Shown: positions 1-53,049 of the stretch, one piece after another | How the letters are laid out: each line of letters opens with the position of its first letter | Numbering within the stretch: position 1 is the stretch's first letter | Source of the DNA: Nitrospiria bacterium | GTDB taxonomy: Bacteria > Nitrospirota > Nitrospiria > SBBL01 > JAADHI01 | Assembly: GCA_945787655.1 (NCBI GenBank) | Contig: CALZIJ010000008.1 | Span: forward strand, 26,644-90,643 | Direction: 5' to 3' | DNA: 64,000 nucleotides | Position numbers and translations under genes: made by a program | The notes under the pieces: model-generated | Databases searched by the model: none | The model's input: only the letters and a program-made list of their open reading frames with translations | Told to the model about the DNA's origin: nothing

Positions 1-2339
1 CCATTGCCGTCGTCAACGGCCACCACACTTCCGGCAGTGATTTGCATCGAATTTCTCTGAATATCATTGGAATTGAGTGTAAAGGAAAATACGCTTTTCA
101 CTCCATCCCCCGTGCCGGCATTTTCTTTGATCACGCTTGAAATCATGGACACCGAAAGCAAACGATCTAAAGAAAGTTCACCATCAATACCGATCATTTC
201 AGTTTCAATGATGCCATTGCCTGCGCTGTTCACGCCACCTGCTATCCAGATTCTATTGTCATTAAACGCATTAATTCCGGAAAAAACGGGAGGAACCGCA
301 TCTGATGTCGGCATCGTAAAGGTATTATCAGCAGAGCTTGTACTGTTCCCTGAAGCATCCTCGCTAATCACCCGGAAATTATAGGCCGTGCTGCCAGTCA
401 GGCCCGTAAGGGTCACGCTGTGGCTGGTTTTAAAGTCACTGTTTAAGGGGGAAGACAGTCCGTAACTAGGACTTGTTCCGTATTCAACTAAAGAGGTGGC
501 CGGTTCATCTGTGGTCCAGGTGATGACTGCTGTTGTGGTATTGACCAACCGGCTTGAAATAAGTGAAACGGCCGGTGCAGCCGCATCAACAGAGGCATCC
601 GTCGTAAAATTAAAATTCTCGGAAAAGGAGACATTTCCCGAAGGGTCAGTACTGAATACCCGGTAATTGTAGGTGGTGTCCAGCGTCAGTCCCCCCAGAA
701 TCACACTGTGGCTGGTTACCGGAGTACTGTTCACCTTGGAAACACTCCCGTAACTTGAGGTCAATCCATATTCCACAAAAGAGGTGGCCGGTTCATCACT
801 GGTCCAGATAATCGTCGCATTGGTACTCCCCGGAGAACCGCTAACACCGACACCGGATAACACAGGAGAACTCAGGTCAGATGTATTGAAGGTAAAATCA
901 CCGGAAAGATCGGCGTTGCCTGATGCATCCACACTTCTAACCTGATAATGGTATGTCGTCGAGGGATTTAAGCCGGACAAACGCACAATGTGCCGCGTTA
1001 CCAAGGTGGCATCAATCACCGGTGTTTCGGCATATGCCGTTGTTTCTCCGTAATTTACTTGCGAAGTGGCCGCCTCATCCGTATCCCACACAATAATGGC
1101 TTCCGACCCTGAAAGCCCGCCATCCGTCGCCGTATGGAACTTCCTTGGGTTGATTAAACGGCCAAAGGGCTGAAAACCTGTCAAGGCAATACGAAAAAGG
1201 TCATTGCCGCGCAATGAAAAATCGTTAAAAAGAAAGGCCCCGGCCGGCTCGTCAAAGTGATACAGTCCGTGAACGGTATTTCTTGCCCCTTCAATAAAGG
1301 GAGAATCGGGAAGCAAAAGCTCTTTCGGCGGATTAAAATCGGATGCCGCATACCGCAAATCCTGGGTCACCCGAACCTCGTCCGCCATGCCGACCCACAG
1401 GTTTTTGCCATCGGGACTTCCAACGGTAAAACGGCTTATGTTTTGGGCAAGCGCCGCGGGGGGCGTCACAATGCTCGAAACCGTTCCATCCAGTGCAATA
1501 TACGCCTGGTTATTGGTCCGATCAATCAGCAGGGCAATATGGTGCCATGCGCCCAGTGTGAGCGGATTGTTTGAAGTAGCTGTCACAGGGGTGCCGGAAG
1601 AAGGATACAGGCGGCCTTTAACTAAAAAATCGGTCCCGACGACCACATCAAAAACACCCTGTTTCCCCATTAAATAAGCATCGGCTGCGGGATTTGGAAG
1701 AGATGTGATAAAAAACCACCCTTCTGCGGATAATTCCATACTTCCGCCGATTCCCATCGAAATTGCAGAACGCCCAAAATGCTTGCCATCCATAATAAAC
1801 TTATTTCCGCTTCCTTCAAAAGCGCCAGGTGGACCAACGAGAACGGTTACTTCATCGGGTTCACTTGATAAGCCCTGGGCCACCGTCGGAATACTTCCGG
1901 TATCTGTGTTATCGGTATTTTGAATGTCTACTTCCGCCTCTTCAACCACAACCAGTTCAATACGATAGACCCCGTCCACATCCCCAATAAATGTTGGGGT
2001 CGGGCTTTCCGGGTCACTCAACTGGGTAGTGCTCCCTGGAGGAGAATCCAGAATACGCCACTGAAATTCAATGACATCCCCATCCGGGTCACTGCTGTTG
2101 GACCCATCCAGAGAGATCAATCCGCCGTTCCCTACATTTTGATCCGCGCCTGCATCGGCGATTGGGGGATTATTGGCCTTAAAAAGATCCTGCGGGCCGG
2201 GCTCATCATCGACACACCCTGGAAGAAAAAACAGGCCACATAACAATAAAATCCGCCCTATGCTTGCCCCATGACAATATAGTAATCCCCTAAAGGTTTT
2301 AATCGGGAATCCACTCTCTTTTTTCTGCTGCTTTTCCAC
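1..2339 (-). CDS. Giant surface lipoprotein, 3' end runs off window (PKD-like + LamG-like + at least 4 Fn3-like repeats)
   Basis: Absent from the ORF track because there is no stop inside the window. Hand translation of the minus strand is open from GTG at 2339-2337 down to base 1. The N-terminus ...GRILLLCGLFFLPGC is a signal peptide plus lipobox. It is followed by ADAGADQNV...LDGSNSSDPDGD (PKD-like) and LGAWHHIALLIDR...ADEVRV (LamG/concanavalin-like). Then come repeats of W.TDE.ATS.V.YG...TSHSV.L.GL...T.Y.YRV.S.D.SGN (Fn3-like). The start lies 7 nt after the stop of the upstream gene. Confidence 0.75.
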   Translation of the reverse strand, partial: MEKQQKKESGFPIKTFRGLLYCHGASIGRILLLCGLFFLPGCVDDEPGPQDLFKANNPPIADAGADQNVGNGGLISLDGSNSSDPDGDVIEFQWRILDSPPGSTTQLSDPESPTPTFIGDVDGVYRIELVVVEEAEVDIQNTDNTDTGSIPTVAQGLSSEPDEVTVLVGPPGAFEGSGNKFIMDGKHFGRSAISMGIGGSMELSAEGWFFITSLPNPAADAYLMGKQGVFDVVVGTDFLVKGRLYPSSGTPVTATSNNPLTLGAWHHIALLIDRTNNQAYIALDGTVSSIVTPPAALAQNISRFTVGSPDGKNLWVGMADEVRVTQDLRYAASDFNPPKELLLPDSPFIEGARNTVHGLYHFDEPAGAFLFNDFSLRGNDLFRIALTGFQPFGRLINPRKFHTATDGGLSGSEAIIVWDTDEAATSQVNYGETTAYAETPVIDATLVTRHIVRLSGLNPSTTYHYQVRSVDASGNADLSGDFTFNTSDLSSPVLSGVGVSGSPGSTNATIIWTSDEPATSFVEYGLTSSYGSVSKVNSTPVTSHSVILGGLTLDTTYNYRVFSTDPSGNVSFSENFNFTTDASVDAAAPAVSLISSRLVNTTTAVITWTTDEPATSLVEYGTSPSYGLSSPLNSDFKTSHSVTLTGLTGSTAYNFRVISEDASGNSTSSADNTFTMPTSDAVPPVFSGINAFNDNRIWIAGGVNSAGNGIIETEMIGIDGELSLDRLLSVSMISSVIKENAGTGDGVKSVFSFTLNSNDIQRNSMQITAGSVVAVDDGN

Positions 2340-5156: not shown

Positions 5157-8100
5157 TTAAAAGACCAGGCGGAGCCCGACAGTACCGATGATCTTCTCGT
5201 ATTTTCCCAGGGAACTGGTATTTCCCGACACCACGGCATTCTCCGTATCGGGTGGCACACTGCCCAGATTAGATTGATTCAATACCCAGGCCCCGTTCAC
5301 AAAAATCTGAATTCCTCTTTCCAGTCCAATGGTCAAGCCAAGACGGACGGAGTGACTTTCTCCAATCCGTTTTTTATTAAAACCTTCTTCCTGATAAATA
5401 TATGCTTTATATGAAAACTCGTATGAACTGTTGAATTGAATGCCGCGGAACAAGGCCCTGTCATAGATAATTGATGGCGCCGCGGAGACAAACGAAAATT
5501 TCTTCCCTTCGGGATTGAGGTTTAAATTGGCCGAAGTTCGTGTGCCCAGCGTTAAACGGCCGCCGGCCCACCCGTTAATAAAAAAGGATCCCGAAGCTGA
5601 CGGTTGGTACGCATCCAGATCGCTATTGTTAATCGAATCAAAAAGGCTGAACCGGACATCTCCCGCCACACTGAATCGATCCCCAAGGCTTTGAAATCCG
5701 GTCACCGCCAAGGAATGCCCCTGGCTTGAAAAAGCCCCTTCAAACAGGCTGAACAAGTATTCATATTCGACCGTCTTTCTTTTTTGATAGCCTCTCCACT
5801 CATGAAAAATCCGGTTTGAAGTGCTAAAAAAAGAAACTTGATCTTTAATATAACTTGATAAACTGGGTGAAATACGAAGCCCCAGACGTTTCCCTTCCCC
5901 CATATCATATATCCGCTGATATTGCCCCAAGAGACTCGAAAGAATATCACTGGATGGATCTTTGCTTAAAGTGACATTATTATCCACGGTGCTTTGATAA
6001 GTGACCGAAACATTGACAAAAAGGTGCCGTATCCGTTCTTCAATTTCTTCTCTAACCGCGTCCGGTAGGTCCGGGTCCTTTAAAACAACCTTGTAATGTT
6101 CGAGGGCATTTTTAACCTGCCCCACTTCTTCATACAAACTGGCCAGGCGGATACGTTTAGGACGGTCATCCGGCGACAGTTCAACGGCTTTTTTAAAGTG
6201 ACTCAGCGCTTGATTGGCATCTTTTAAGCGCAAGGCAATAAAACCTAAATTAAAGTATGCCATGGGTTCTTCGGGATCGAGAAAAAGGATCGTCTCAAAA
6301 TGAGCCTGGGCCTTTTCAATCTGGTCTTCCTGCCCTAAAACCACCCCTCTGAGCAAATGGTAACGAATCTGTGAAAATCGTGCTGTTTTTCCATGGACAA
6401 GCCACATCAGCGCGGCATAGTCGTTAACAGAATCCTTTTCCTCTCGTCCCATTTCCACCTGCTCCAACAGCACTTGCTCTATGATTTTATTGTTTTCTCC
6501 GGCCCGTTGCATTAAACCCGAAAATAGGGTTTTGGCCTCGTCTATTTTTTCATCCTGAGTATCTAGGATAAAACCTGTTTCGGACAACCCGGTAAAACTG
6601 GACAGATAATGGTCCGCCAAGATCGTATCACGCACCATGTTTAAGATTCTAGCAATCTGAATTCTGATAAGAATCAGATAGGTATTTTTATCTTTGGGAT
6701 CCAAAGCGACTACTTTTTCAAAAGCAGATGCAGCAGATTCCATCTCATTTATTTCGCGATAAAACACGCCCAGGTTATAAAAGTTCACGGGGTTATTCGG
6801 TTGGATTTCAAGAGCGGCCTTAAACCATTTTTCAGCCTCCTCAAATTTTGTCAAACCCATGGCAACCTTGGCATTGACTGAATAGAGACTGACCAGGGCA
6901 TTTTTCCCATCCGGACTATCTGCATTAACCTCCACCGCTTTTTCATAAAAAATAACCGCTTTTTCCAAATCCCCACTTTGCTCAGACATGCTCCCAAGAT
7001 GAATATAGGCTTTCTGATGACGCGGGTTCTCCGAAATGGTTTGCCGAAACGCCTTTTCGGCTTTCTGAAGGTCGCTTAACTCAAGATGGATCTTTCCGAT
7101 ATTAAAATAGATCGCGGCTTTCTCCCTTGAGAAGGTCAATGCTTTTTCAAAAATAGCCAACGCTTCTTTGATCCGGCCCTGAAGCGCGAGAGCACTTCCT
7201 TGAAGAAGAGGCAATTTTTGGTTCGCGCTGATCCCACCCGGCGTTCTGGGGTTAATTTCAACCGCCCGAATAAAAACCTGCAAGGCCTCATCCAGACGGC
7301 CTTGATTTTCGTACAGATTCCCCAAATTTAGATAAGCATCCTGGTGTCTGGGGTCCAATGAAACCACTTTCAAAAAAGCCTGTTCCGCATCCTGGAGCTG
7401 TTTTTTAATCGAATAAATTAAACCGATATTGTAATAAAGGGCAGCCTGTTCCCCCGAAAAAGAAAGGGCCCGCAAAAACAGAGTCAGGGCTTCATCCAAT
7501 CGCCCCTGGCGTGCGAGCAGGCGCCCCTGAAAAACAGGTATTTTGCTTCGAGCAATTTGGGCTCCCCGGCTCCTTGTATCAATTTCAAGGACTTTAAAAA
7601 AGACGTTAAGTGCCTCATCGATCCTGTTTTTCCGTTCGTAAAGAATACCTAAGCGGACGTAGGCTTCTTGGTGATTCGGGTGTATACGAATTACTTTCTT
7701 AAAGGCCGCTTCCGCCTGTTTATCATCTTCAAGTTGAAGATAAACCAGGCCAATATTATATTGCACCCCAGGATCATTTGGAGAAATCTGTTCTGCTGTC
7801 TTAAAAAATTTTAGCGCTTCTTCAAAATTTTGCGAACGCGCCTGCATAATCCCGTTAATCATATTGACTTTAAATTGGCTGATCGTTTTAATTTCATCTG
7901 CCGGATTTTGTTTTATCACTTGATCATATAGGGCTAAGGCCTCAGGCAGCTTTTGCGTGGCTTCATAAAGATCCGCCAAACGAAGATAAGCCTCAATCGC
8001 CGAAGGCGCCAGCCGGATCGTTTCTTTAAACGCCGCCTCCGCTTTTTCAATATCTCTTTTCTGCATATATCCAATACCCAGTTGAAGATGGATCTCGGCC

Positions 8101-8288
8101 TTATCCGGGAATTTTAATCGCATTGATTCAAAATGGGTGATAGAATCATCCCATTTCCCTTCTTTTATCAACCTGTTTCCTTCTTCCATCTGACTTGAAA
8201 ATACAGAATCAGAAAGTGTTTGAGCTGATGCAATCCCCGACAAAATGAGTATTACGATAACTGCCTGTGCACTGCATCGTTTTAACAT
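5157..8288 (-). CDS. Giant TPR-repeat protein fused to a C-terminal ~290-aa outer-membrane beta-barrel-like domain
   Basis: The track ORF is 5157..8330. I prefer the ATG at 8288 (MLKRCSAQAVIVILILSGIASAQ is a signal peptide), 5 nt after the stop of the upstream gene. About 750 aa carry TPR-type A..F......P....A...LG repeats. The tail has alternating-hydrophobic strands and ends ...GTVGLRLVF (terminal Phe, as in OMPs). Confidence 0.75.
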   Translation of the reverse strand: MLKRCSAQAVIVILILSGIASAQTLSDSVFSSQMEEGNRLIKEGKWDDSITHFESMRLKFPDKAEIHLQLGIGYMQKRDIEKAEAAFKETIRLAPSAIEAYLRLADLYEATQKLPEALALYDQVIKQNPADEIKTISQFKVNMINGIMQARSQNFEEALKFFKTAEQISPNDPGVQYNIGLVYLQLEDDKQAEAAFKKVIRIHPNHQEAYVRLGILYERKNRIDEALNVFFKVLEIDTRSRGAQIARSKIPVFQGRLLARQGRLDEALTLFLRALSFSGEQAALYYNIGLIYSIKKQLQDAEQAFLKVVSLDPRHQDAYLNLGNLYENQGRLDEALQVFIRAVEINPRTPGGISANQKLPLLQGSALALQGRIKEALAIFEKALTFSREKAAIYFNIGKIHLELSDLQKAEKAFRQTISENPRHQKAYIHLGSMSEQSGDLEKAVIFYEKAVEVNADSPDGKNALVSLYSVNAKVAMGLTKFEEAEKWFKAALEIQPNNPVNFYNLGVFYREINEMESAASAFEKVVALDPKDKNTYLILIRIQIARILNMVRDTILADHYLSSFTGLSETGFILDTQDEKIDEAKTLFSGLMQRAGENNKIIEQVLLEQVEMGREEKDSVNDYAALMWLVHGKTARFSQIRYHLLRGVVLGQEDQIEKAQAHFETILFLDPEEPMAYFNLGFIALRLKDANQALSHFKKAVELSPDDRPKRIRLASLYEEVGQVKNALEHYKVVLKDPDLPDAVREEIEERIRHLFVNVSVTYQSTVDNNVTLSKDPSSDILSSLLGQYQRIYDMGEGKRLGLRISPSLSSYIKDQVSFFSTSNRIFHEWRGYQKRKTVEYEYLFSLFEGAFSSQGHSLAVTGFQSLGDRFSVAGDVRFSLFDSINNSDLDAYQPSASGSFFINGWAGGRLTLGTRTSANLNLNPEGKKFSFVSAAPSIIYDRALFRGIQFNSSYEFSYKAYIYQEEGFNKKRIGESHSVRLGLTIGLERGIQIFVNGAWVLNQSNLGSVPPDTENAVVSGNTSSLGKYEKIIGTVGLRLVF

Positions 8289-10968: not shown

Positions 10969-11619
10969 TTAGAAGTTTTGGTTCACAACAGCCGGGCTAC
11001 CTGTATCAAACAAAATACTTGAGCTAAATCCAGGTGTTCCAGGATCGCTTACCAGCTGATCAATACTCGTTGTAAAACCACCCGTACCATCTGGGGTCAG
11101 GGTTAAGTCATTACGATCCAAGCCTTGGCTGGGATCTAAAATGCTTTGCGTAACATTGATATCGGTTCCAACTAAATCAGCTTCTGTTCCTGTTCTTGCA
11201 ATGATATTCAGGTTATCCATTCTAACCAATACATCAACGGAAGGGACTCCGAGAGAATCTGTTGCTGCCTTAAGGCTTTGCTTAAACGTAATGTTATTGG
11301 TTGAAGTCGTTGTCGTCGCACCCGTAATAGCACCACCCGGGGTAAACGTTTCCTGAATAAACTCTGAACCTGTTGAGCCATCCGGTTTACTCCGGATAAT
11401 CATGTGGTTTAAAAGTTCCGTTCCAATCACGACTTGTTCTTGAAAAAATGTACTGTCACCAACACTTTCAAAAAGCCGGTTGGTCCCACCTGTAATTCCG
11501 CAAGTGGCCTGGCTGTTACAAGTGCCATCGTTAAACGACGTTGTTTGTGCTTCCACCATACCGGCAGACAAAAGGATACCCAAGCTTAATACACCCAGGA
11601 TTTTAAATTTTGATTTCAT
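10969..11619 (-). CDS. Small secreted protein, paralogue family member A (216 aa)
   Basis: Strong RBS (AGGAGG). Signal peptide MKSKFKILGVLSLGILLSAGMVEA/Q. It shares the motifs FFQEQV, SEFIQETF and ITFKQSL with the 242-aa neighbour. The mature part has two Cys. It ends ...VVNQNF. Confidence 0.7.
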   Translation of the reverse strand: MKSKFKILGVLSLGILLSAGMVEAQTTSFNDGTCNSQATCGITGGTNRLFESVGDSTFFQEQVVIGTELLNHMIIRSKPDGSTGSEFIQETFTPGGAITGATTTTSTNNITFKQSLKAATDSLGVPSVDVLVRMDNLNIIARTGTEADLVGTDINVTQSILDPSQGLDRNDLTLTPDGTGGFTTSIDQLVSDPGTPGFSSSILFDTGSPAVVNQNF

Positions 11620-11668
11620 TATTTATACCTCCTAATCAATGCGTTTTCCCAATTTAATCCTGCTGTCA

Positions 11669-12397
11669 TTATGGCCCTTGAACAATCACAGGGGAACCAC
11701 CGGTTGTAAAGTCCATATTTTGACTAAACACAGACACTCCAAGGCCGTCAACTACATTGACCTCTTGGGAAATGGTGGTACAGAAAGAAGCAGTCGCTCC
11801 GCATGAAGGGTCTGTTACTTCTTGACCTTTCACAGTGAAATTCGGAAGGATATCAACATTTGTAAAACTTAACCCTCCAGCCTGGCCCGAAATCGCAGCC
11901 GAACCATCGACCTGCTGATGAATGTGAATATCCTGCCCTGGATCCAGACTGGATGTCGTTGAAAAACCAGGACCACTCAAGGTTTGCCTAAATGAAATAC
12001 TGGTTTGAGCTGGGGCGGGGGTCACCGGAGCCGTCGTGTTATTTTGGTTGGTCGGACTCCGTTGAGACCCCATCAAAACAAAGGATTCCTGAATAAAGGA
12101 GCTTCCGACTGCAGAAGCTTCCATCACAGAGTGCACAGCCAGTTCGGGACCAGAACCGACATCAATGTTCACAAATTCCTGAGTAAAGAAACTTCCACTA
12201 CCCATTGTACCCTCTGAGACAACCAATTGCCCTGAAAGTGGGACTCCGCTTCCATCTATTCCAGAGTGAACAAATGGAAAAGGAGAGGGATTATCGCTAA
12301 ACGAAGGTGCCCCAACCTGGGCTTCAGACTTTCCGTATCCTGAAGCAATCAGAACACCTGATATTAATAGGAAGATTATTCCTTTTTTCAGATTCAT
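11669..12397 (-). CDS. Small secreted protein, paralogue family member B (242 aa)
   Basis: Strong RBS (AAGGAGG). The signal peptide ends ...GKSEA/Q. Motifs FFTQEFV, SSFIQESF and ISFRQTL are collinear with member A. The mature part has two Cys. Confidence 0.7.
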   Translation of the reverse strand: MNLKKGIIFLLISGVLIASGYGKSEAQVGAPSFSDNPSPFPFVHSGIDGSGVPLSGQLVVSEGTMGSGSFFTQEFVNIDVGSGPELAVHSVMEASAVGSSFIQESFVLMGSQRSPTNQNNTTAPVTPAPAQTSISFRQTLSGPGFSTTSSLDPGQDIHIHQQVDGSAAISGQAGGLSFTNVDILPNFTVKGQEVTDPSCGATASFCTTISQEVNVVDGLGVSVFSQNMDFTTGGSPVIVQGP

Positions 12398-12464
12398 ACC
12401 TTACCTCCTTTTAGTAAAAAAACAAGACAAAAACCACGTTACTACAAAAAAAAAAATTTTTCAA

Positions 12465-13577
12465 TCAAAATCCACCAAAACCACCACCCCCGCCGCCACT
12501 GCCATTCGGGAAATTAGTAGACAAACCGCTGCTAAAAGAATCACTCCCACTACCGCCCCATCGCTCCCAGTTAATCGGGGTGAGCTGGAAGTTATCGTCA
12601 TCGTGAACAGGAATCAAAGATCGGACTGAACTCGCCGCTCCACCGCCGGAACACCCGTCTCGAGTGCCCCGATCACTATTAAAATTAAAATTGCCTCTGT
12701 CGGCTGGATCGTTAAAATCATTACATCGGCTAAAATTAAGTAACTGGTTGTTGACGGGATCGACTATTTTGACCGCTTCCAGGTCATTCCACCAATCAAT
12801 CGTCCCATTACTTGGGCTTCCACCCCCAAAACCACCCCCGCCCCCGCCACCGGCAGGTATACTTACGGCGACATCATGAGAAAGATCTCCCGGGCTTAAG
12901 GTAAAATTTTGACTTTGTGTAATATCTAATGGCATCACACCTGCGAAGCTGGTCATCCAAACCCCGATATCCTGGCGCACCAGCACTTTCCCGGACGCAC
13001 TGTCAAAAAAAGGCACTTGACGAAAATGCATGTCCATCTGGTTTAGGCCGTTTGTCAGCTGCGCCACTTTCCTTTCTGTAATATCGGAATGAATACTCAC
13101 AGGCTGCCGGAAGCTGTCTATGACTGTTTTTTCTGTCAAGCCAAAGGCCGGGTCTGTGATTTCCTGACTGAAAATCAAGTTTCCCTCCGGGTCGTTGGTA
13201 CTGCCGGAACCAAATTTCGTATAACTCTCCATCGTAAAATCAGAGGAAGACATGCTTTGAAAAAAGAAACTTTCTCCACTGGAATTCGTCACCTTTCCCT
13301 GGGTAAATCCGGGGCTTTGCATCACATCTTCGACAACAAGCCCGGACACAGTTGCTGGATCAGTACCCCAAGGGGCAGGCGCATCAGATGCGAGGGGGGT
13401 TACAGTCGCTGCGGGAAGGGTTCTTGTAATGTTTCCACCTCCACCTCCACCTCCGCCTCCAAACTGCGCATAGGCCGGGGAAACGGAAACTATTGCAACC
13501 ACAGCAAACACCGGAAATAGTAGCGTATTTTTGTTTTTAAACCATTTTGTTGTATTTTGAAACGGCAACATACGCAC
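12465..13577 (-). CDS. Glycine-tract secreted protein, distant member C of the same family (370 aa)
   Basis: The signal peptide ends ...VSPAYA/QF. The start could be the ATG at 13571. Poly-Gly runs occur right after the cleavage site (QFGGGGGGGG), internally (AGGGGGGGFGGG) and at the C-terminus (GSGGGGGGFGGF). Motifs FFFQSM, LIFSQEI and FRQPV echo members A and B. Confidence 0.65.
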   Translation of the reverse strand: MRMLPFQNTTKWFKNKNTLLFPVFAVVAIVSVSPAYAQFGGGGGGGGGNITRTLPAATVTPLASDAPAPWGTDPATVSGLVVEDVMQSPGFTQGKVTNSSGESFFFQSMSSSDFTMESYTKFGSGSTNDPEGNLIFSQEITDPAFGLTEKTVIDSFRQPVSIHSDITERKVAQLTNGLNQMDMHFRQVPFFDSASGKVLVRQDIGVWMTSFAGVMPLDITQSQNFTLSPGDLSHDVAVSIPAGGGGGGGFGGGSPSNGTIDWWNDLEAVKIVDPVNNQLLNFSRCNDFNDPADRGNFNFNSDRGTRDGCSGGGAASSVRSLIPVHDDDNFQLTPINWERWGGSGSDSFSSGLSTNFPNGSGGGGGGFGGF

Positions 13578-16233: not shown

Positions 16234-17238
16234 TCAAGAAGGATTATTAGCTGTTTCAAGCGGGACTTCTCCTCCTGTTTCAGTATAAAGAATCGTTTGT
16301 TTTGTTCCGGTCACCCAACCCATGTTTTGATTGGTAAAATGAACGCCGGTTAAAAATTGAAGGGTGCCGGTGGTTTGCTGCTCCCAGGTTTCCCCGCCAT
16401 CTTTTGTTTGCAATACCGTTCCGCCCGCGCCCACAACCCAGCCATGAAGCTCATCAACAAAAGAGACATCGGTCAGCAAAGAAGTCAAACTGCTTTTTTG
16501 AGGGGTCCAACTGACTCCGGCATCCATCGTCTTGAGAATGATGCCGCCATTTCCAACAATCCAGCCCGTTTGATCATTCACGAAAAAAATGCGGAGCAAG
16601 TCCCTATTGGTTCCCGTTTCCCGCAATGACCAATTTTTACCCCCATTATTCGTGACAAGCAGATTCCCTTTGTGGCCTGTGATCCATCCGTGATCGGGAT
16701 CAGTAAACAAAACCGAATTCATTGTTAAGCGGGAATCTCCCTCGGCCTTCTGCCAATGCAAACCGCCATCATCGGTAGATAGCAGATTGCCTTTAACCCC
16801 GGTCACCCAGCCCTGTTTTTCGTTAATAAAATAAACTGAGGTGAGATCTTTTTTAACACCGCTGGATTGCGGCCCCCAGGTTTTTCCTCCATCGGATGTA
16901 TGTGCAATCAGGCCGCGATCTCCGACCGCCCATCCCAGTTGTTCATTCAGAAAAAAGGTGGAAACAATCAACACCTTTGTCCCCGTTTCCTGGACAACCC
17001 AATCTTTCCCGCCATTTTCTGTGTGCAGAATAACCCCTTTATTACCCGTGACCCAGCCTTTTTTATCATTCAGAAAAAATATCCCGCCCAAAGACGTATC
17101 CACGGGAACCGCTTGTAACTCCCAGCCGGTTGAAATTTCCGATCGATCCGGCATTTCAGGCGGTCTGGGACACCCTGCGATTAAAAACCCCAGAAACACC
17201 CATAATAATGCTTTTGCTTGCGTTTTCGTCAGATTCAT
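16234..17238 (-). CDS. Ycf48/BNR-like beta-propeller lipoprotein
   Basis: The track ORF extends to 17343. I prefer the Met at 17238 (MNLTKTQAKALLWVFLGFLIAGC contains a lipobox). Repeated units read GW.VG..G.I..T.DGG..W. Confidence 0.7.
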   Translation of the reverse strand: MNLTKTQAKALLWVFLGFLIAGCPRPPEMPDRSEISTGWELQAVPVDTSLGGIFFLNDKKGWVTGNKGVILHTENGGKDWVVQETGTKVLIVSTFFLNEQLGWAVGDRGLIAHTSDGGKTWGPQSSGVKKDLTSVYFINEKQGWVTGVKGNLLSTDDGGLHWQKAEGDSRLTMNSVLFTDPDHGWITGHKGNLLVTNNGGKNWSLRETGTNRDLLRIFFVNDQTGWIVGNGGIILKTMDAGVSWTPQKSSLTSLLTDVSFVDELHGWVVGAGGTVLQTKDGGETWEQQTTGTLQFLTGVHFTNQNMGWVTGTKQTILYTETGGEVPLETANNPS

Positions 17239-17269
17239 TTTTTCAGAATTCCACTCTAAGTATCCGCCC

Positions 17270-18253
17270 TTACTGAACGTTTGATAATGTCCAGGGTTCT
17301 TCCTGGTTTTCTTTTTTATAAATCCCCCGCATGGTCCCGGCAAACAGGGTATTGTTTTTCAATGGGTGGGAAGCAACGGTCAATACAGACTTGGGGGATT
17401 GGGAAAGCAACTGCCAGGATTCACCCCCGTCTTTCGATTCATAAACCCCATCATTATTGCCAACGTAAACAATATTGGGGTCTTTTTTATCCACAGAAAT
17501 GGACGAAACAAACTTGGTGGAAAGCCCGTTGTTGCGTTCCTCCCAGTGCGCACCCAGGTCTGTTGATTTAAAGACGCCTTTATTCGTCCCGGCATAAATC
17601 ACCTTGGGGTTAACCGGGTCAAACTGAACGTTGTTCACCGCCCATTCTTTTGTTTCCCGCGATGTGATCCGCCATTGTCTTGCAGAGTTCGTTGTGATAT
17701 ACACCCCTTCGTTTGTCCCTGCCAAAATCACGGATCGGCTTTGCGGATTAAAAGCAAGTGAAATCACGAAACGATTTGCCATGCCCATATTGGCATCCCG
17801 CCACTGACTCCCGCCGTCCGTTGTCAAATAAATCCCGTGGTTCGTACCCACATACACCCGTTTGGATTCTACCGGATCGACGATCACCGCATTCACGGCC
17901 TGTGTTCCGACATTATCATCAAGCCCACGATTCGCAATGTTCCAATGCCCGCCACTGTCAATACTTCGATAAACACTGTCCCCATACGTCCCTGTATATA
18001 TAACAGAGGAAAGAGATGGGGTCACCGCAATCGAGACGATGTTGTAGGAGGTTAAGCCCTCGTTGGTTTTATTAAAGGTATTTCCACCATCCATACTTTT
18101 ATAAAAGCCTCCACCAGAGGTTCCGATATATACAATCTCTGGTTTATGATAACTAAAACCGATCGAGAAAACATTGACCCGTTGTTCACAGCCTGCCAGA
18201 AGGGTTAAAACTAGCGAAATAATTAATTTAAAAACAGGGTAAGGCCGCACCAT
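17270..18253 (-). CDS. BNR/sortilin-type beta-propeller lipoprotein
   Basis: The track ORF extends to 18307. The internal Met gives MVRPYPVFKLIISLVLTLLAGC (lipobox). Repeated S.DGG..W BNR motifs include DGGNTF, SGGHW, DGGSQW, LGAHW and DGGESW. Confidence 0.7.
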   Translation of the reverse strand: MVRPYPVFKLIISLVLTLLAGCEQRVNVFSIGFSYHKPEIVYIGTSGGGFYKSMDGGNTFNKTNEGLTSYNIVSIAVTPSLSSVIYTGTYGDSVYRSIDSGGHWNIANRGLDDNVGTQAVNAVIVDPVESKRVYVGTNHGIYLTTDGGSQWRDANMGMANRFVISLAFNPQSRSVILAGTNEGVYITTNSARQWRITSRETKEWAVNNVQFDPVNPKVIYAGTNKGVFKSTDLGAHWEERNNGLSTKFVSSISVDKKDPNIVYVGNNDGVYESKDGGESWQLLSQSPKSVLTVASHPLKNNTLFAGTMRGIYKKENQEEPWTLSNVQ

Positions 18254-18530
18254 ATTTAGTCCTGAAAATACCCTAGGCATCGTATCATATCTTGTTAAGA
18301 TAGACAATCAATGGGCATCATCCACCTTATACCTCAGATATTGATCTTTTCCAGCCCCTTGCGGACCTCATTCTCCCGGAGATTCAAAGGCACCACTTGG
18401 TTTTTTGCGGAACGATCTATTTTTATCAAAAGAGTTTCGCAGACCTGTAAAGATAGACCCTGATCAATCGAGGGAACCCGCGCCCTCATCCGACAGGATC
18501 AAAGGGGAAACCGTCATCGACTGTCCTTCA

Positions 18531-18583: not shown

Positions 18584-20494
18584 ATGTCTTCTTTTGCCCA
18601 AGCCCAAAAACCGAATCGCCCATTAAAGTTGGGAGAATATTTATCACAGAAAGGCCACCTGAATGAAAAACAAATTCTTTGGGCACTTGAGGAACAAAAA
18701 AAGACCGGAAAACGGCTGGGGGAAATATTAAGCGCTTTAAAATTCATTTCAGATGAACTCATTGCCCAATCCATCGGTGCCATTAATCATGTCAGTTATG
18801 TCACCCCGCACACGCTCACCATAGAGAAAGATCTTTTTCTCATGATTCCCGAATGGCTCGCACGCCGCCACCTCGCTGTACCGGTGAAAATCCATGAAAA
18901 GGAATTTATTGTCGCAATGGCCGACCCGTTTAACTACGAAACCCTGAATGATCTGAGTTTTTATGCGGGCATGGCGATCACGCCCGCCATCTCGACCCAT
19001 AAAAATATTCTTGCAGCCATTGAACAAAATTATCATTTTGATACCTCCTCTGTTGAAAAAATTGTTCAGGCTTCCGAAAAAGATTTCGCGAAGGGCGCTT
19101 TGCAAGTGATTCCGGATCTTGCGGAAAACAATCGTCTTCATACAGACACCCGAACCCTGGAGAAAAAAAGTCAGTTGGGTCCGGTCGTGCAACTCACCAA
19201 TGTCATCATCGGAAAAGCCATTAAAATGCACGCCAGTGATATCCACATTGAACCGGCCCAAAAAGACTTTCGGGTCAGATACCGTATTGACGGCTTGCTC
19301 AGGGAAGAAATGCGGCTTCCCAAATGGGTTCAAAACCCGCTTGTCTCCAGGATTAAGATTCTTTCAAAGCTGGATATTTCAGAACGGCGGCTTCCGCAAG
19401 ACGGTGCGGTCCGTGTTATTGCCGAGGGCCGGGCCGTGGACCTTCGAATTTCGACACTCCCCACCGCACATGGTGAAAAAGTTGTCCTCAGAATTTTAGA
19501 TCAATCCAAAGTGTTAATCGATATCAACCAAATCGGTTTTCAAAACAAAGACGCCAAAACCGTGCGTAAAATGATTCAAAAACAAAAAGGCATGATCCTC
19601 GTCACAGGGCCCACCGGAAGTGGAAAAACCACCACCTTGTATGCCCTCATCCAGGAACTTAAGTCGGTGACCAATAACGTTACAACTGTTGAAGATCCAA
19701 TAGAGTACACCATTGAAGGCATTAATCAGATTCAGATTAATAATGAAGTCGGCTTAACGTTTTCACAATGCCTTCGTTCTATCCTTCGACAGGACCCCAA
19801 TATTATTTTTGTGGGGGAGATTCGAGACAAAGAAACCGCTGAAATTGCTTTTCGTGCCGCGATGACCGGGCATCTTGTTCTTTCCACTTTACACACGAAT
19901 GACGCCTCATCCACAATTACACGACTGGTGGATATCGGCGTTCCTCCTTATTTAATCTCTTCCTCTCTTATTGGCATTGTTGCGCAACGTCTGGTTCGAA
20001 AACCTTGTCCCCGATGCCTTGAACTGCGCGACTCCCCGCACAATATCCAGAGTGAGCCTTTAATGGGATGCGCCTTGTGTCATCATACCGGTTTCAATGG
20101 ACGTATTGGCGTTTTTGAGGTCATGCCTGTTTCCCAGAAAATCCGGGAACTGATCACCTCTGGCGCCACCGAGCAAGAAATCCGCCGGGTTAGTCATTCC
20201 GAAGGCATGACTTCCATGAAAGAAGATGGCTTGCTCAAAGCAAAATCCGGAATCACAACCCAGGAAGAGGTCACCCGGGTGGTTGAAAAAGATGACGCGG
20301 TAAAAAGTCTCTGCGCAACCTGTGAACGACCTCTCCGGGTTGATTTTTTAATCTGTCCATATTGTGCTGACACCGCCCCAAATATCTGCGGACGATGCGG
20401 AAAACGACTTCAAACGGAATGGCGCGCCTGCCCCTATTGCCGGCATCCATCCTCCCCTAAAACCCAGAAACCCTCCAAGGATTCTGAGCAATAG
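18584..20494 (+). CDS. GspE/PilB-family secretion ATPase with MshEN-like N-terminus and C-terminal double zinc ribbon
   Basis: GPTGSGKTT Walker A, the Asp box/Walker B region (IIFVGEIRD) and a His box (TGHLVLSTLHTND). An internal tetra-Cys motif is present (CPRC...CALC). The N-terminal KLGEYLSQKGHLNEKQILWALEEQ fits the MshEN pattern. An extra tail reads CATC..x9..CPYC..x6..CGRC..x9..CPYC. Confidence 0.85.
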   Translation: MSSFAQAQKPNRPLKLGEYLSQKGHLNEKQILWALEEQKKTGKRLGEILSALKFISDELIAQSIGAINHVSYVTPHTLTIEKDLFLMIPEWLARRHLAVPVKIHEKEFIVAMADPFNYETLNDLSFYAGMAITPAISTHKNILAAIEQNYHFDTSSVEKIVQASEKDFAKGALQVIPDLAENNRLHTDTRTLEKKSQLGPVVQLTNVIIGKAIKMHASDIHIEPAQKDFRVRYRIDGLLREEMRLPKWVQNPLVSRIKILSKLDISERRLPQDGAVRVIAEGRAVDLRISTLPTAHGEKVVLRILDQSKVLIDINQIGFQNKDAKTVRKMIQKQKGMILVTGPTGSGKTTTLYALIQELKSVTNNVTTVEDPIEYTIEGINQIQINNEVGLTFSQCLRSILRQDPNIIFVGEIRDKETAEIAFRAAMTGHLVLSTLHTNDASSTITRLVDIGVPPYLISSSLIGIVAQRLVRKPCPRCLELRDSPHNIQSEPLMGCALCHHTGFNGRIGVFEVMPVSQKIRELITSGATEQEIRRVSHSEGMTSMKEDGLLKAKSGITTQEEVTRVVEKDDAVKSLCATCERPLRVDFLICPYCADTAPNICGRCGKRLQTEWRACPYCRHPSSPKTQKPSKDSEQ

Positions 20495-25029: not shown

Positions 25030-26328
25030 TCAATCCCGTTGCCTTGCCGAATTGTAAACCCCGACAGGTTCCGGGTTTACATTTTTCAATGGCCCTCTTG
25101 CCTTGTCATTTTCATGGGTATACTGCGTTGTATTAATGGCTGGAAATGCTACTGATGACAGCCGTTTGTAGTCATACTTCGCTTCCGCACTTTCATTACG
25201 ATGACTTTCCGTCCGATCATCCCATTGGAAAAGGAGGGCGACTTCCTTGTCATTGTAAAGAGAGCGAACCCGAATATCATCAACAGTACGGATAAAATGT
25301 CTTGGCGGTTGAATAATCTGACTCGCCATTCCTACAAACTGAGGAGGAACAGCAAGCCATTTCTCATCCGTAGGCGTATCCGGAACTGCACCTTCTTCAA
25401 CAAAACGAGATTTAATCACAAACCCGATTGCAGGTTTTCCCGTTTCTGGGTCAAGCGGACGTTTAATATCCGTTAAGGAAATAACGAAATTCGCGACATG
25501 CCATCTTTCCTCTTCAGACAATTCTTCCGCAAAAGACGGCATCGGAGTCCCATTCAAGCCTGTTGAAATTTCACGAAAGATATTTCTAGGATTGTAAGGA
25601 TCTCTTCGGTTTCCTCTTAAATTCCAGGGTTTTTGAAGATTCGCTGGAAAAATCGGAAAAGCCCAGTCATCTCTCTGGGTCAAGTTTCCATCTCCACGAC
25701 CTTCAACACCGTGACATTCTACACATTTTGCTTTATTCATAAAAATGTCACGACCTTGTTCGATGCTTTCAGGTGAAGAAGGAATTTGAGTTCCATAACT
25801 GATTACCGTTATTTCTTCATCAGGATCATCAAATTCCCTGTCTTTGACCAATTCCTTTTTAATAAAGGAGACAACATCCTTACGCTCTTGCTCAGAAAGG
25901 ATTGAACCCCAAGGAGGCATTACGGACCCTGAAAGACCATGCGTTACAGAGTTGAAAAGATCTTCATCTGTGGGCAATTCCCCACTGCCTGTATGCCGGA
26001 TTTTAAACGTTCCCTGGTTAAAATTTCTTGGTTTTGTGATCAGCCGAATTGCAGAAGGACCATCTCCCGCACCATCCGGACCGTGACACCAAACACACTT
26101 CCGAAAATATACCCCTTTACCGGCCTCAATGTTACCGGCGAGTGTACCCGGTTTATAGGTGCCCGGACTTGGTTCTAAAGGTGCTGGTGAAACTTTAAAG
26201 ACCTGTGCATTTCCAGGGACGCTGGATCCAATGATCAAGGCGGCGGCAAAAGCCGTACCCAAACCAAATCCCAGGACTGCCTTTTTCAGGCCGCTAGAAC
26301 CTTTTTTTTGTCCCAATATTTCTATCAT
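25030..26328 (-). CDS. Diheme cytochrome c fused to the N-terminal half of an EB_dh-like domain
   Basis: CVWCH and CVECH heme c motifs. The signal/anchor reads KKAVLGFGLGTAFAAALIIGSSVPGNA. The distal part, ...RTVDDIRVRSLYNDKEVALLFQWDD, is EB_dh-like. The start was set to the ATG at 26328, which follows GAGGGGG. Confidence 0.75.
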   Translation of the reverse strand: MIEILGQKKGSSGLKKAVLGFGLGTAFAAALIIGSSVPGNAQVFKVSPAPLEPSPGTYKPGTLAGNIEAGKGVYFRKCVWCHGPDGAGDGPSAIRLITKPRNFNQGTFKIRHTGSGELPTDEDLFNSVTHGLSGSVMPPWGSILSEQERKDVVSFIKKELVKDREFDDPDEEITVISYGTQIPSSPESIEQGRDIFMNKAKCVECHGVEGRGDGNLTQRDDWAFPIFPANLQKPWNLRGNRRDPYNPRNIFREISTGLNGTPMPSFAEELSEEERWHVANFVISLTDIKRPLDPETGKPAIGFVIKSRFVEEGAVPDTPTDEKWLAVPPQFVGMASQIIQPPRHFIRTVDDIRVRSLYNDKEVALLFQWDDRTESHRNESAEAKYDYKRLSSVAFPAINTTQYTHENDKARGPLKNVNPEPVGVYNSARQRD

Positions 26329-26391
26329 TTTTCCTATTCCCCCTCTTAAATCAAATTCCATCAAAATGGGATGTATATTTCCCAAAAGAGA

Positions 26392-28797: not shown

Positions 28798-30741
28798 TTA
28801 GTGGCTTCCTGCCGGGACAGCAGATCCTGCTGCTTCGGCTGCCGCTTCCGCTGCCACCTTCTCCTTACCTTTACCGGCAAGAGCACTTAACCAGAAGACA
28901 AAGAGGAGCATGGTCCAGAATAGAAGAACGTTGAAAGAATTAATATTCCCCGCATATCCGAGAGGATTGGTAAACGCCCACGGTGAGTTATCCCGGAGAA
29001 TTTCATTGACGTGCCAGTGAAGCCGGACTGAAGAGCGAAGGTAACCCATCACTGCCATGGTCCATGTAAACGCCACTGCAAGCATAAACAGCGCGTAAGC
29101 TCCCCTCACTGACATGCGTCCCCATCGGATTTCACCAACAGATTCCGCCCCTTTCAGCATCTTCACATTCATCCATACGCCTATAAACAAGACGGTCAAT
29201 GTTGAAGCCACCTGCGGAACAGATAACCCAATTCGAACGTTGGCCGGAATAAAATACCCGTAAATACCCAGGAAAACGATATTTGCTTCTGCACCGAACA
29301 CCAAGAAGAAGAGAAACAAATTCCCTTTCCAGGCCCACGGGACTTTCACATTGAAGTTGCACCGCTGGTAGATAATAAAGCAGACGCAGGTTGTCGTAAT
29401 CATGGTGTTAATCGCCGTATTTTTGGCCGACATCACCCCATAGTTTCCAACCACCGGATGCTGCGCACCTCCCATGGCTTTCAACTCCGCAGGAGTCATC
29501 ACCAAGGTATGTGGCGTCAACCATGCAATCGTTGACACAACCAATATCGCAAGCATGTACTTGAAGTAGCGGTGATACCGTTCCGAACCCGGCATTCTTC
29601 CCATCGCCTGGAACAGATAGTAATTCACGGTAATAAAGAGCGTTGCGATCATTGTCGCCTGCATAATAAACACCCAGGCCAACAATCCACCCATTAGCGT
29701 AATTCCCATTTGCTGACGGTAGGCGTAAATTTCACGCATCAACCAATAGCCCGCAAAAGGAAGCGGAATCAAAGCCAAAATCCCCATAAACATGGCGATA
29801 TAGCTCATCCAGTCGTAATGCCCTTTTTCTTCGATGTTTTTGGCTGCGAGGAATTTAAATGCAGCATAGGCCGCCACGACACCGCCACCAAAGGCCGCAT
29901 TCCCTAAAATACGGTGAATCACAATAGGAACCATCAGGGGATTATGCATGACCTTCCAGATATCCCCCAGGAACCTCCCTTGAGCATCAACACCTGCAGG
30001 AGACATCATAAAGCTCACCCAGGTATTCGCCATCACCATCAAAACGATACCTACAGCATTCAGCATGGTGCCTAATGCCAAGTGGCTCCATTTCCAGTCT
30101 CCGTCTCCATCGTTCATGGCATCCCAGCCATAGTAGTAAACGTACAACACACCGCTTTCCAAGATAAAAAGCAGTGCGTAAATATGCATAACCGGCCTAA
30201 AGATGCCTGATAAATAGCGGAAAAACCCTGGATAAAGGGCCAAGAAAGAAAAAATCAAAATCCCGCCCAAAATCGCGGTGACCGAATAGGCCGTCAAACT
30301 GATTTTCATCATTTCGTGAGCAAGATCGTCAAATTTCTTTCCTGCTTTTCGATCTTTCCCATACTGGAGAATGCCGATCAGCTCCATGACCCACACAAAC
30401 ATGGGAACCGCCAAAACAAAACTCCCGAAATAAAGATGCTGCTGATTGGCAATCCAGATTATTGTCCGACTTTGAAAGTCGCCATAAGAACCATAATCAT
30501 CCGGATAAACCATTTCTTTTGCAGGAGGGCCGGAAACAATCCCAAACTCTCCCGGCCCTTTATAGAAGACATCTTTTGCTTTTTCCGGCTCTGCATCCCC
30601 TTCTGCTGCTGCTTCGGCGGCTTTTTCTTCCGCTGCCATCACAACTGCAGGGGTGAATGGGAGAAGAACGAGCATTCCAATCATGCTCAGAAGAAGCCAT
30701 GCTCCTATTTTCTTTTTTTTCTCTCCGTTAAGATTTAACAT
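28798..30741 (-). CDS. Cytochrome bd-like (CydA-like) polytopic membrane protein
   Basis: LFILESGVLYVYYYGW resembles E. coli CydA AFFLESTFVGLFFFGW. NTWVSFMMSPAG resembles ANGWMQNP. IVIHRILGNAAFGG resembles the His186 helix. There are more than 12 TM segments and the long Q-loop is absent. The start was set to the ATG at 30741, after GAGGAGG. Confidence 0.8.
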   Translation of the reverse strand: MLNLNGEKKKKIGAWLLLSMIGMLVLLPFTPAVVMAAEEKAAEAAAEGDAEPEKAKDVFYKGPGEFGIVSGPPAKEMVYPDDYGSYGDFQSRTIIWIANQQHLYFGSFVLAVPMFVWVMELIGILQYGKDRKAGKKFDDLAHEMMKISLTAYSVTAILGGILIFSFLALYPGFFRYLSGIFRPVMHIYALLFILESGVLYVYYYGWDAMNDGDGDWKWSHLALGTMLNAVGIVLMVMANTWVSFMMSPAGVDAQGRFLGDIWKVMHNPLMVPIVIHRILGNAAFGGGVVAAYAAFKFLAAKNIEEKGHYDWMSYIAMFMGILALIPLPFAGYWLMREIYAYRQQMGITLMGGLLAWVFIMQATMIATLFITVNYYLFQAMGRMPGSERYHRYFKYMLAILVVSTIAWLTPHTLVMTPAELKAMGGAQHPVVGNYGVMSAKNTAINTMITTTCVCFIIYQRCNFNVKVPWAWKGNLFLFFLVFGAEANIVFLGIYGYFIPANVRIGLSVPQVASTLTVLFIGVWMNVKMLKGAESVGEIRWGRMSVRGAYALFMLAVAFTWTMAVMGYLRSSVRLHWHVNEILRDNSPWAFTNPLGYAGNINSFNVLLFWTMLLFVFWLSALAGKGKEKVAAEAAAEAAGSAVPAGSH

Positions 30742-30873
30742 TAATTTTTCCTCCTCAAGGAAATTTAAGGAAAGTGAACACAACCACCTTTCCCTGCCTG
30801 ACCATTAAAACCTTCTTTATTGAGCTTCACTACTCCACAGCTCATTCATCTCAAATCTTTAATTCCTCGGAAA

Positions 30874-48810: not shown

Positions 48811-48840
48811 AAACGCCGATGACGATTGGAGAAATTGTGC

Positions 48841-49977: not shown

Positions 49978-50009
49978 TAAATTAACGGCGTTATAAGGAG
50001 GATTAGTCA

Positions 50010-51212: not shown

Positions 51213-51295
51213 AGGGAAACCGCCGGTTCTAAAGATTAGACTTCTTTAATGAAGAAAGATAGTACCGGCACATATTAGAGCGGGCCAATTCCAAA

Positions 51296-53035: not shown

Positions 53036-53049
53036 CGGGTTCATAAATT

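Follow-up and report, generated by a model that had tools for sequence, protein, structure and literature searches.

A stretch of 64,000 nucleotides from a Nitrospiria bacterium (GenBank assembly GCA_945787655.1, contig CALZIJ010000008.1, forward-strand positions 26,644 to 90,643; hereafter the window) contains a gene for a giant protein in which an array of tetratricopeptide repeats (TPRs) is joined to a C-terminal outer-membrane β-barrel. Comparison of related loci showed that this TPR-barrel protein is one subunit of a conserved envelope module, together with a DUF1302-type barrel and a partner protein of about 275 amino acids (aa), all three being predicted outer-membrane barrels. We tentatively propose, with somewhat less than even confidence, that it provides the TPR docking function in a multi-barrel module through which lipid-anchored or secreted surface proteins are exported, and that it does Slam-like work without being a Slam. 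The host belongs to the Nitrospirota, as its MetK is 74-78% identical to MetK of Nitrospirota metagenome-assembled genomes (MAGs) and homologues of the partner protein are labelled Nitrospiria or Nitrospirae. A preliminary description of the locus, made from the nucleotide sequence, had already doubted that the host was proteobacterial.

The TPR-barrel gene is a single open reading frame (ORF; Table 1). Translation from the ATG at 8288 gives a protein of 1043 aa, identical to the NCBI-called MAG protein P0010 (GCA_945786955.1). The gene is real and conserved, and not a product of chance, because homologues with equal architecture and equal neighbours exist. The N-terminus, MLKRCSAQAVIVILILSGIASA with Q as the residue following the cleavage site, reads as a Sec signal peptide. 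Behind it, residues ~30-745 were covered by Pfam repeat models, with 11 stretches for TPR_1 (E 2e-87) and 13 for TPR_2 (E 5e-87); over the models TPR_1, TPR_2, TPR_8 and TPR_16, E-values ranged from 1e-63 to 1e-87 with 7-13 stretches each. A helical stretch at about residues 560-640 of the array is less regular, and the protein ends in ...GLRLVF. Taken with the structure model described below, the analysis shows a protein that is predicted to be exported by Sec, anchored in the outer membrane by a 14-stranded barrel, and extended into the periplasm by a TPR solenoid of about 730 aa. The giant TPR array with a C-terminal outer-membrane barrel, as read in the preliminary description, was borne out by the Pfam repeats over ~730 aa and by a confident barrel model.

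For the barrel domain of 290 aa, a HMMER scan of 1.84 billion cluster representatives returned 10 relatives. Each of the 10 has this C-terminal domain preceded by 550-1300 aa of TPRs, and F is the last residue in nearly all of them; members of the TPR-barrel family are 862-2417 aa long. A word-indexed homologue search with the C-terminal 376 aa as query gave matches to TPRs only, and the same kind of search with the barrel alignment gave one protein. The single barrel sequence had no match in GTDB genomes or in JGI metagenomes. The domain matched no Pfam family, with no hit to DUF560/SlipAM or to the barrels of exopolysaccharide porins even at E ≤ 10, and there was neither a match to an NCBIfam model nor a significant match to PDB sequences, profile searches with alignments A1 and A7 included. 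The barrel and the ~275-aa partner are both outside any curated family (Pfam, NCBIfam), and both are candidates for new family definitions.

AlphaFold2 modelling from the 10-sequence alignment A1 produced a closed β-barrel with a mean pLDDT (predicted local distance difference test) of 89.2 and a pTM (predicted template modelling score) of 0.81; single-sequence prediction of the last 387 aa reached a pLDDT of only 36. DSSP assigned 16 strand segments to the barrel model. The pairs 53-59/62-66 and 186-189/192-200 are single kinked strands, and the count is therefore 14 once the two pairs are joined at normal strand length. With 14 strands the periplasmic turns are short (2-4 residues) and the extracellular loops longer (up to 23 residues), and both termini of the barrel are placed in the periplasm, matching what the fusion to TPRs needs. 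A strand count by AlphaFold had been recommended in the preliminary description, and its outcome was a C-terminal domain that folds in the model as a 14-strand membrane barrel.

The best Foldseek matches of the barrel model in the PDB were the 14-stranded OmpG (TMq 0.65-0.66, TMt 0.69-0.70) and CymA. The 16-stranded porins were clearly poorer, with a TMq of 0.47 for PelBC (9h80) and 0.43 for BcsC (6tzk). OmpG and CymA are sugar channels without a TPR domain, and their sequence identity to the barrel is just 8-10%; the structural likeness, at TM-scores of 0.65-0.70, therefore concerns fold size only. The most conserved motifs of the barrel are D-S-N-x-N-L after strand 1, N-x-S-N-L after strand 13 and S-L-G-x-Y before strand 14. 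In the model they would lie at the extracellular strand ends around the seam between strand 1 and strand 14, a position that might suit a gate.

The surroundings of the TPR-barrel gene were compared over about 90 related loci, some of them annotated (L001-L010, L091 and L093; the window is from the same contig as L001), the others a wider sample of 80 JGI metagenome loci, which were fetched via the DUF1302-like protein and scanned with home-made component profiles. With the exception of L009 and L010, every annotated locus has the DUF1302-like gene beside the TPR-barrel gene; for the metagenome loci the figure is 80 of 80, by selection. Partner and DUF1302-like genes flank the TPR-barrel gene also in distant homologues of 23-30% identity. 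Where at least 3 kb of sequence is available beyond the partner (26 metagenome loci), the TPR-barrel gene is the next gene in 18. The gene that follows the DUF1302-like gene in the metagenome loci encodes an RND transporter in 33 loci, the partner in 11 and a lipoprotein of ~1300 aa in 5. The preliminary description had left the two genes directly upstream of the TPR-barrel gene uninterpreted, and it is these that encode the DUF1302-type barrel and the conserved, putative outer-membrane partner.

Three types of cluster were distinguished. Four loci form the Nitrospirota type (window/L001, L002, L003 and L091), with the common order of three small secreted proteins, DUF1302-like protein, partner, TPR-barrel protein and lipoproteins 1 and 2; the two lipoproteins, of 830-1116 aa and with PKD, LamG, FN3 and Kelch domains, are encoded in tight spacing downstream. 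In the commonest type the order is a secreted protein with Q motifs, a LolA-like protein, a 150-aa protein, the DUF1302-like protein, an RND transporter of ~825 aa, the partner, the TPR-barrel protein and a convergent ABC-2 transporter; one named record of this LolA/RND type is gammaproteobacterial. The LolA-like gene was present in 23 of the 31 metagenome loci with enough upstream sequence, and the Q-motif secreted protein opens the cluster in 13 of 31 such loci and in L004, L008 and L009-type loci. The LolA-like protein of L004 matches PF17131 (E 5e-37). The RND protein has about 12 transmembrane-like segments, and its best PDB relatives are Dispatched (4e-12), HpnN (9e-9) and MmpL4 (7e-7), followed by weaker matches to MmpL3 and MmpL5 (1e-4 to 1e-2); these relatives represent the lipid-handling branch of the superfamily. 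The RND fragment of L005 alone had no Pfam or PDB match, and its identity was taken from a full-length homologue. In most LolA/RND-type loci the ABC-2 type pair (a DrrA-like ATPase and an ABC2 membrane protein) lies convergently right after the TPR-barrel gene, examples being L004 8047-10331, L093 5732-7701 and L110 17446-19566.

The third type (L006, L161, L164, L166, L172, L173 and L174) has the order TPR-barrel, DUF1302-like and a protein of ~1300 aa, which carries a lipobox in all three loci that were read (L006, L161 and L173). Giant lipoproteins thus accompany the TPR-barrel gene in two of the three cluster types. In a further variant, seven loci are without the TPR-barrel gene and have another gene in its position. 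The product in each of the four that were read (L107 10722-12443, L116 11699-14425, L132 10701-13607 and L147 7435-9474) is a large secreted protein of β-propeller repeats whose C-terminus runs from a Gly-rich stretch through a hydrophobic helix to a basic tail. This end looks like a sortase-type anchor of the GlyGly-CTERM or PEP-CTERM kind.

Table 1. Positions of the TPR-barrel gene, its parts and the neighbouring cluster genes in the window.
Feature	Position	Strand	Remarks
TPR-barrel gene, single ORF	5157-8288	minus	starts possible at 8330 or 8288; stop codon 5157-5159
Sec (SPI) signal peptide of TPR-barrel protein, residues 1-22	8223..8288	minus	cleavage after ASA; read from the translation
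Periplasmic TPR array (predicted), ~730 aa	6027..8222	minus	at least 13 recognisable TPR units; Pfam TPR models
C-terminal 14-stranded outer-membrane β-barrel (predicted), ~290 aa	5160..6026	minus	new family; AlphaFold2, Foldseek
Partner protein, 274 aa	8294..9118	minus	signal peptide; putative small outer-membrane barrel; directly upstream of TPR-barrel gene
Divergent DUF1302-family outer-membrane barrel (predicted), 504 aa	9317..10831	minus	Pfam PF06980 E 1.2e-14, 54.7 bits vs cut-off 23.2
Small secreted protein C, 216 aa	10969..11619	minus	paralogue of B; Cys pair, then F-F-Q-E-Q-V and F-I-Q-E-T-F motifs
Small secreted protein B, 242 aa	11669..12397	minus	L002 orthologue 55% identical
Small secreted protein A, 368-370 aa	12465..13577	minus	three poly-glycine runs; L002 orthologue 47% identical
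Giant lipoprotein 1, 934 aa	2347..5151	minus	lipobox ...FSVVSC; weak CarboxypepD_reg Ig-like domain; candidate cargo
Giant lipoprotein 2, 1116 aa in full, first ~780 aa in window	1..2339	minus	GTG start at 2339; lipobox ...FFLPGC; candidate cargo

The partner ends in ...GWEITGSIRFFF. Its homologues lie directly upstream of the TPR-barrel gene in seven loci of the Nitrospirota and LolA/RND types (BLAST 1e-13 to 1e-106); L006 and most of the remaining third-type loci yielded no partner homologue. The family consists of 25 clusters, all annotated as hypothetical; four have source names, namely three Nitrospiria/Nitrospirae MAGs and one Gammaproteobacteria MAG. The Pfam family OMP_b-brl was matched by 3 of 22 members (best E 2.9e-6), and the partner is putatively a small outer-membrane barrel. 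Comparison of the partner profiles (A3 and A6) with PDB sequences gave nothing significant. We also considered the partner as a paralogue of the 14-strand barrel, and this was ruled out (hhalign probability below 1%).

The DUF1302-like protein of the window represents a short, divergent subfamily, covering only positions 80-362 of the 541 in the PF06980 model. It is 32-68% identical across the related loci compared (BLAST). DUF1302 has been modelled as an 18-stranded, AlgE/Occ-like barrel (PMC13499233).

Upstream of these genes the preliminary description had placed small secreted proteins, and three proteins with signal peptides are indeed encoded there (10969-13577). The poly-glycine runs of small protein A are 7-9 G long, one of them right after the signal peptide and one forming the C-terminus (...GGGGGGFGGF); in L091 a 356-aa protein occupies the position of protein A. 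A profile of small proteins B and C is remotely related to the ~340-aa secreted protein of L004, L008 and L009-type loci (hhalign probability 86%, E 4.7e-6). Profile-profile comparison alone made this connection, as BLAST and jackhmmer found no link between the Nitrospirota small proteins and those of L004 and L008. Small protein A and the secreted proteins of L005 and L006 showed no tie to the Q-motif family. In L002 and L091 the cluster is headed by a Big_5 protein of ~570 aa, with a lipobox in L002, which the window does not have.

Downstream, both lipobox-bearing giants of the preliminary description were recovered. The spacers are 5 nucleotides between partner and TPR-barrel genes, 5 between TPR-barrel and lipoprotein 1 genes, and 7, including AGGAGG, between the genes of lipoproteins 1 and 2. 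Lipoprotein 1 has orthologues with lipoboxes in L002 and L003 (35-41% identity), and an 894-aa protein is found in that position in L091. Lipoprotein 2 contains PKD, laminin-G and FN3-like domains and, beyond the window, a C-terminal Kelch propeller, the full gene being available in L001; it has orthologues in L002, L003 and L091, with lipoboxes in the first two. The lipoprotein 2 orthologues of L001 (15950-19300), L002 (15550-18348) and L003 (8445-11201) end in EIYFP, EIFYP and EFYLP, a pattern of aromatic/Leu-aromatic/Leu-Pro. The terminal tripeptide is FTP in two of three lipoprotein 1 orthologues, QGP in small protein B and LDP in the lipoprotein of L006. Such Pro-terminated ends may be a C-terminal signal or may be chance. 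A scan for promoters and terminators gave nothing above chance.

On the basis of these gene sets we propose that the module serves the display of neighbouring gene products on the cell surface, moving proteins that are lipid-anchored, Sec-exported or both into the outer membrane or through it. As candidate cargo the window offers the two giant lipoproteins, which are adhesin-like, and perhaps also the three small secreted paralogues. Docking and chaperoning in the periplasm would fall to the TPR array, and one or more of the barrels would offer a passage for the polypeptide and a lateral route for its lipid anchor. In LolA/RND-type loci the LolA-like carrier and the Dispatched/HpnN/MmpL-type pump would feed cargo to the barrels; in Nitrospirota the housekeeping lipoprotein pathway would have to do so. 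We infer that the cargo bears lipid, because a LolA-fold carrier and an RND pump of lipid type are found as accessory parts, and because three independent gene orders join the module to giant proteins with a lipid or a sorting-type C-terminal anchor. These giant proteins have domains typical of surface proteins (PKD, laminin-G, FN3, Kelch, CarboxypepD_reg, FG-GAP and β-propeller repeats). Dispatched releases a lipid-modified protein.

Several findings weigh against the export of surface proteins by the module. The window operon has no LolA-like (DUF1329/PF17131) gene by Pfam, and no COG1033-type RND transporter was found among the scanned window ORFs of more than 140 aa. Giant lipoproteins are absent from the commonest cluster type, in which the sole conserved candidate for protein cargo is the ~340-aa secreted protein, and the RND and LolA-like parts would suit a lipid or a hydrophobic small molecule equally well. 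No C-terminal domain or targeting domain common to the lipoproteins and small proteins was detectable. Neither lipoprotein, nor the small proteins, had a TbpB-type Pfam match (E ≤ 0.1), and lipoprotein 2 ends in a Kelch blade. The barrel nature of the partner rests on the 3 of 22 weak Pfam matches and a C-terminal aromatic motif, and the structure model of the barrel domain was built on 10 sequences.

A bolder form of the proposal, which we consider rather unlikely as it stands, is that the three-barrel set is the outer-membrane end of an unrecognised secretion system that flips giant lipid-anchored, adhesin-like proteins onto the cell surface, analogous to Slam and evolutionarily separate from it. 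Such a system would be fed by the LolA-like carrier and the Dispatched/HpnN-like RND protein where these are present, and would occur in Nitrospirota, Gammaproteobacteria and uncultured organisms of metagenomes. To our knowledge, routes of lipoproteins and further lipid-anchored proteins to the surface are known for few lineages: some Proteobacteria use Slam, and the routes of Bacteroidota and spirochaetes are understood in part. We know of no described system of this kind in Nitrospirota. Our literature searches found no description of the TPR-barrel family or of this gene combination. The gene set is compact and conserved, uniting lipid-carrier proteins, three predicted outer-membrane barrels and giant lipoproteins in Nitrospirota and many environmental bacteria, and is therefore a defined candidate open to heterologous reconstitution. 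The widespread DUF1302/DUF1329/RND module in turn gains two obligate-looking parts, the TPR-barrel protein and the ~275-aa partner, and a new hypothesis about its substrate.

The main rival, possible although somewhat doubtful in our judgement, is that the module moves a lipid or a hydrophobic small molecule and not proteins. An HpnN/MmpL-type RND pump would pass the substrate to the LolA-like carrier, and its insertion or release at the outer membrane would be the task of the DUF1302 barrel. The TPR-barrel protein and the partner would then be structural scaffolds, and the lipoproteins co-regulated passengers, for example surface binders of the substrate. DUF1302 is known only from uncharacterised modules with DUF1329, BNR and RND genes. 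In Proteobacteria the genes for DUF1302, DUF1329 (LolA-like), BNR and COG1033 RND proteins are cofit and have been proposed to export an envelope component; efflux of monoterpenes, as AmeABCD of Castellaniella defragrans, or an action on fatty esters has been proposed for them as well.

We compared AmeABCD, Sama_1588-1591, and PP_0765/0766 with PP_2018/2019, as modules of DUF1302, DUF1329, BNR (COG4447) and RND genes, with the loci studied here. Common to both is a DUF1302-family barrel and, in most related loci, also a LolA-like protein and a lipid-type RND protein in one operon. The described modules, which are tied to hydrophobic or envelope cargo, differ in having no TPR-barrel protein, ~275-aa partner, Q-motif secreted protein or giant lipoproteins; the window operon, for its part, differs in having no LolA-like and no RND gene. 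Transport of a lipid or small molecule is favoured by the roles proposed for these cofit genes, by the RND gene right after the DUF1302-like gene in 33 metagenome loci together with the LolA-like gene in 23 of 31, by the kinship of the RND protein with HpnN and MmpL, and by two Ycf48-like BNR genes three genes upstream in the window. The adjacency of BNR genes is, however, not kept in L002 and L091. Moreover, the Nitrospirota and third types have no RND or LolA-like gene and yet keep the barrels together with giant lipoproteins, and a periplasmic TPR array of 700-1300 aa is a device for binding proteins or polymers, with no obvious role for a small lipid.

An alternative that we regard as improbable is that the module secretes small proteins rich in Q, T and G and builds a fibre or coat from them outside the cell, much as curli and Fap are built, with the TPR-barrel protein as platform and the lipoproteins as accessories. 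A secreted family with conserved, ordered motifs does open the cluster in Nitrospirota (as the three small proteins), in L004/L008/L009-type loci and in 13 of 31 metagenome loci, and the composition of these proteins is of low complexity, rich in Gly, Thr, Ser and Gln, with several ending in F. Against a fibre, the Nitrospirota proteins are only remotely related to the other secreted proteins (the profile match at 86% probability), no such protein was detected in L005 or L006, and the LolA-like and RND parts are left without an account.

The preliminary description had favoured a translocon of the Slam or type XI secretion system (T11SS) kind. Slam has two TPRs and a predicted 14-stranded barrel (PMC7857515), and T11SS proteins, described mainly from Proteobacteria, are defined by the presence of DUF560, are 481 aa long at the median, and have cargo whose C-terminus forms an eight-stranded barrel (PMC12282271). 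The TPR-barrel protein resembles Slam in being Sec-exported by prediction, in the succession of periplasmic TPRs and a C-terminal 14-stranded barrel of ~290 aa, and in a gene that adjoins lipoproteins and small secreted proteins as plausible cargo. It differs in its ~730 aa of TPRs (at least 13 units) within 1043 aa in total, compared with two TPRs and ~480 aa in Slam, a disparity in length that the preliminary description had anticipated; in the lack of DUF560 membership; in its Nitrospirota host; and in the accompanying DUF1302-type barrel and, mostly, the ~275-aa partner, neither of which T11SS has.

That the protein belongs to the Slam/T11SS (DUF560) family as a true but strongly diverged member, acting as sole translocon for the adjacent lipoproteins with the DUF1302-like protein and the partner as unrelated neighbours, is in our estimate very improbable. 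The two-part design is common to both, the SlipAM model having 288 positions, and among the 10 family members P0020 aligned with SlipAM (PF04575) colinearly, protein residues 151-254 to model positions 147-248, with an E-value of 3.5e-4. This match, at 20.6 bits, is below the Pfam cut-off of 22, and the query and the other members (9 of the 10) had none. Other members match Porin_4 or BBP2_2 just as weakly, and the SlipAM match is therefore read as generic barrel similarity. Likewise, PF24575 (TPR_Slam) reached 40.6 bits over the full-length protein, matching best in the last TPRs before the barrel, but fell to 13.5 bits when these last TPRs were scanned alone, and so the match is not specific. 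The hallmark of T11SS cargo, a C-terminal 8-strand barrel, was not detected by Pfam in the candidate cargo, lipoprotein 2 having its Kelch blade there instead. Finally, the DUF1302-like and partner genes are not chance neighbours, since synteny with them is kept down to 23% identity. Family membership in Slam/T11SS, as suggested in the preliminary description, thus failed, while its preference for Slam-type logic over a polysaccharide porin held, with 14 strands as predicted for Slam and with PelBC and BcsC as poorer structural matches. Profile comparison of the C-terminal domain, which had been suggested to discriminate between the two, matched neither the Slam (DUF560) family nor the BcsC/PgaA/PelB barrels.

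PgaA, BcsC and PelB, of which AlgK-AlgE is a split version, are likewise built of a giant TPR array in the periplasm and a C-terminal barrel in the outer membrane; their TPRs are thought to be a docking platform for periplasmic partners, and the window has an AlgE-like DUF1302 barrel next door. The TPR-barrel protein differs from them in its 14 strands, as opposed to 16 or 18, and in having no sequence membership. The NCBIfam models of PgaA (TIGR03939) and BcsC (NF008520) scored 56.7 bits against a cut-off of 366.65 and 61.1 against 858, on TPR stretches only. As the preliminary description had stated, polysaccharide genes are missing: no glycosyltransferase or synthase domain was found among the scanned window ORFs of more than 140 aa or the annotated genes of L001-L010, L091 and L093, and no modifying enzyme gene was seen in the window or in the Pfam-annotated related loci. 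An exopolysaccharide export porin with its synthase genes elsewhere in the genome would fit the architecture, the weak matches of the TPR region to the PgaA, BcsC and PrsT models and the AlgE-like fold of DUF1302, but we consider it highly improbable because the barrel has 14 strands and not 16, the PgaA and BcsC matches are confined to TPRs and far under their cut-offs, and synthase and glycosyltransferase genes were not found in the scanned window ORFs or the annotated related loci, with the TMq values of PelBC and BcsC (0.47 and 0.43, against 0.65 for OmpG) pointing the same way.

Other genes of the window were noted in passing. The two tandem Ycf48-like BNR β-propeller genes lie at 16234-17343 and 17270-18307 on the minus strand (PSII_BNR, E 5e-43 and 3e-10), separated from the cluster by phoH, ybeY and ftsY. 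A T2SSE-family ATPase whose C-terminus carries a double zinc ribbon is encoded close to the cluster (18584-20494), apart from the type IV pilus set given below. A gene with an FGE-sulfatase (formylglycine-generating enzyme-like) domain is located at 31611-32441; L002 has a second such gene (1052-2041) shortly before its cluster. A Nitrospira-like respiratory set consists of a dihaem cytochrome c and two divergent cytochrome bd subunit-I-like genes (25030-26385, 28798-30783 and 32627-34537). An M48 peptidase fused to TPRs (42685-44121, minus strand) is BepA-like, a type involved in quality control of outer-membrane proteins. A type IV pilus set at 46999-54453 encodes a PilB-like ATPase, a PilT-like ATPase, PilC, a PilS-like kinase and a sigma-54 PilR-like regulator.

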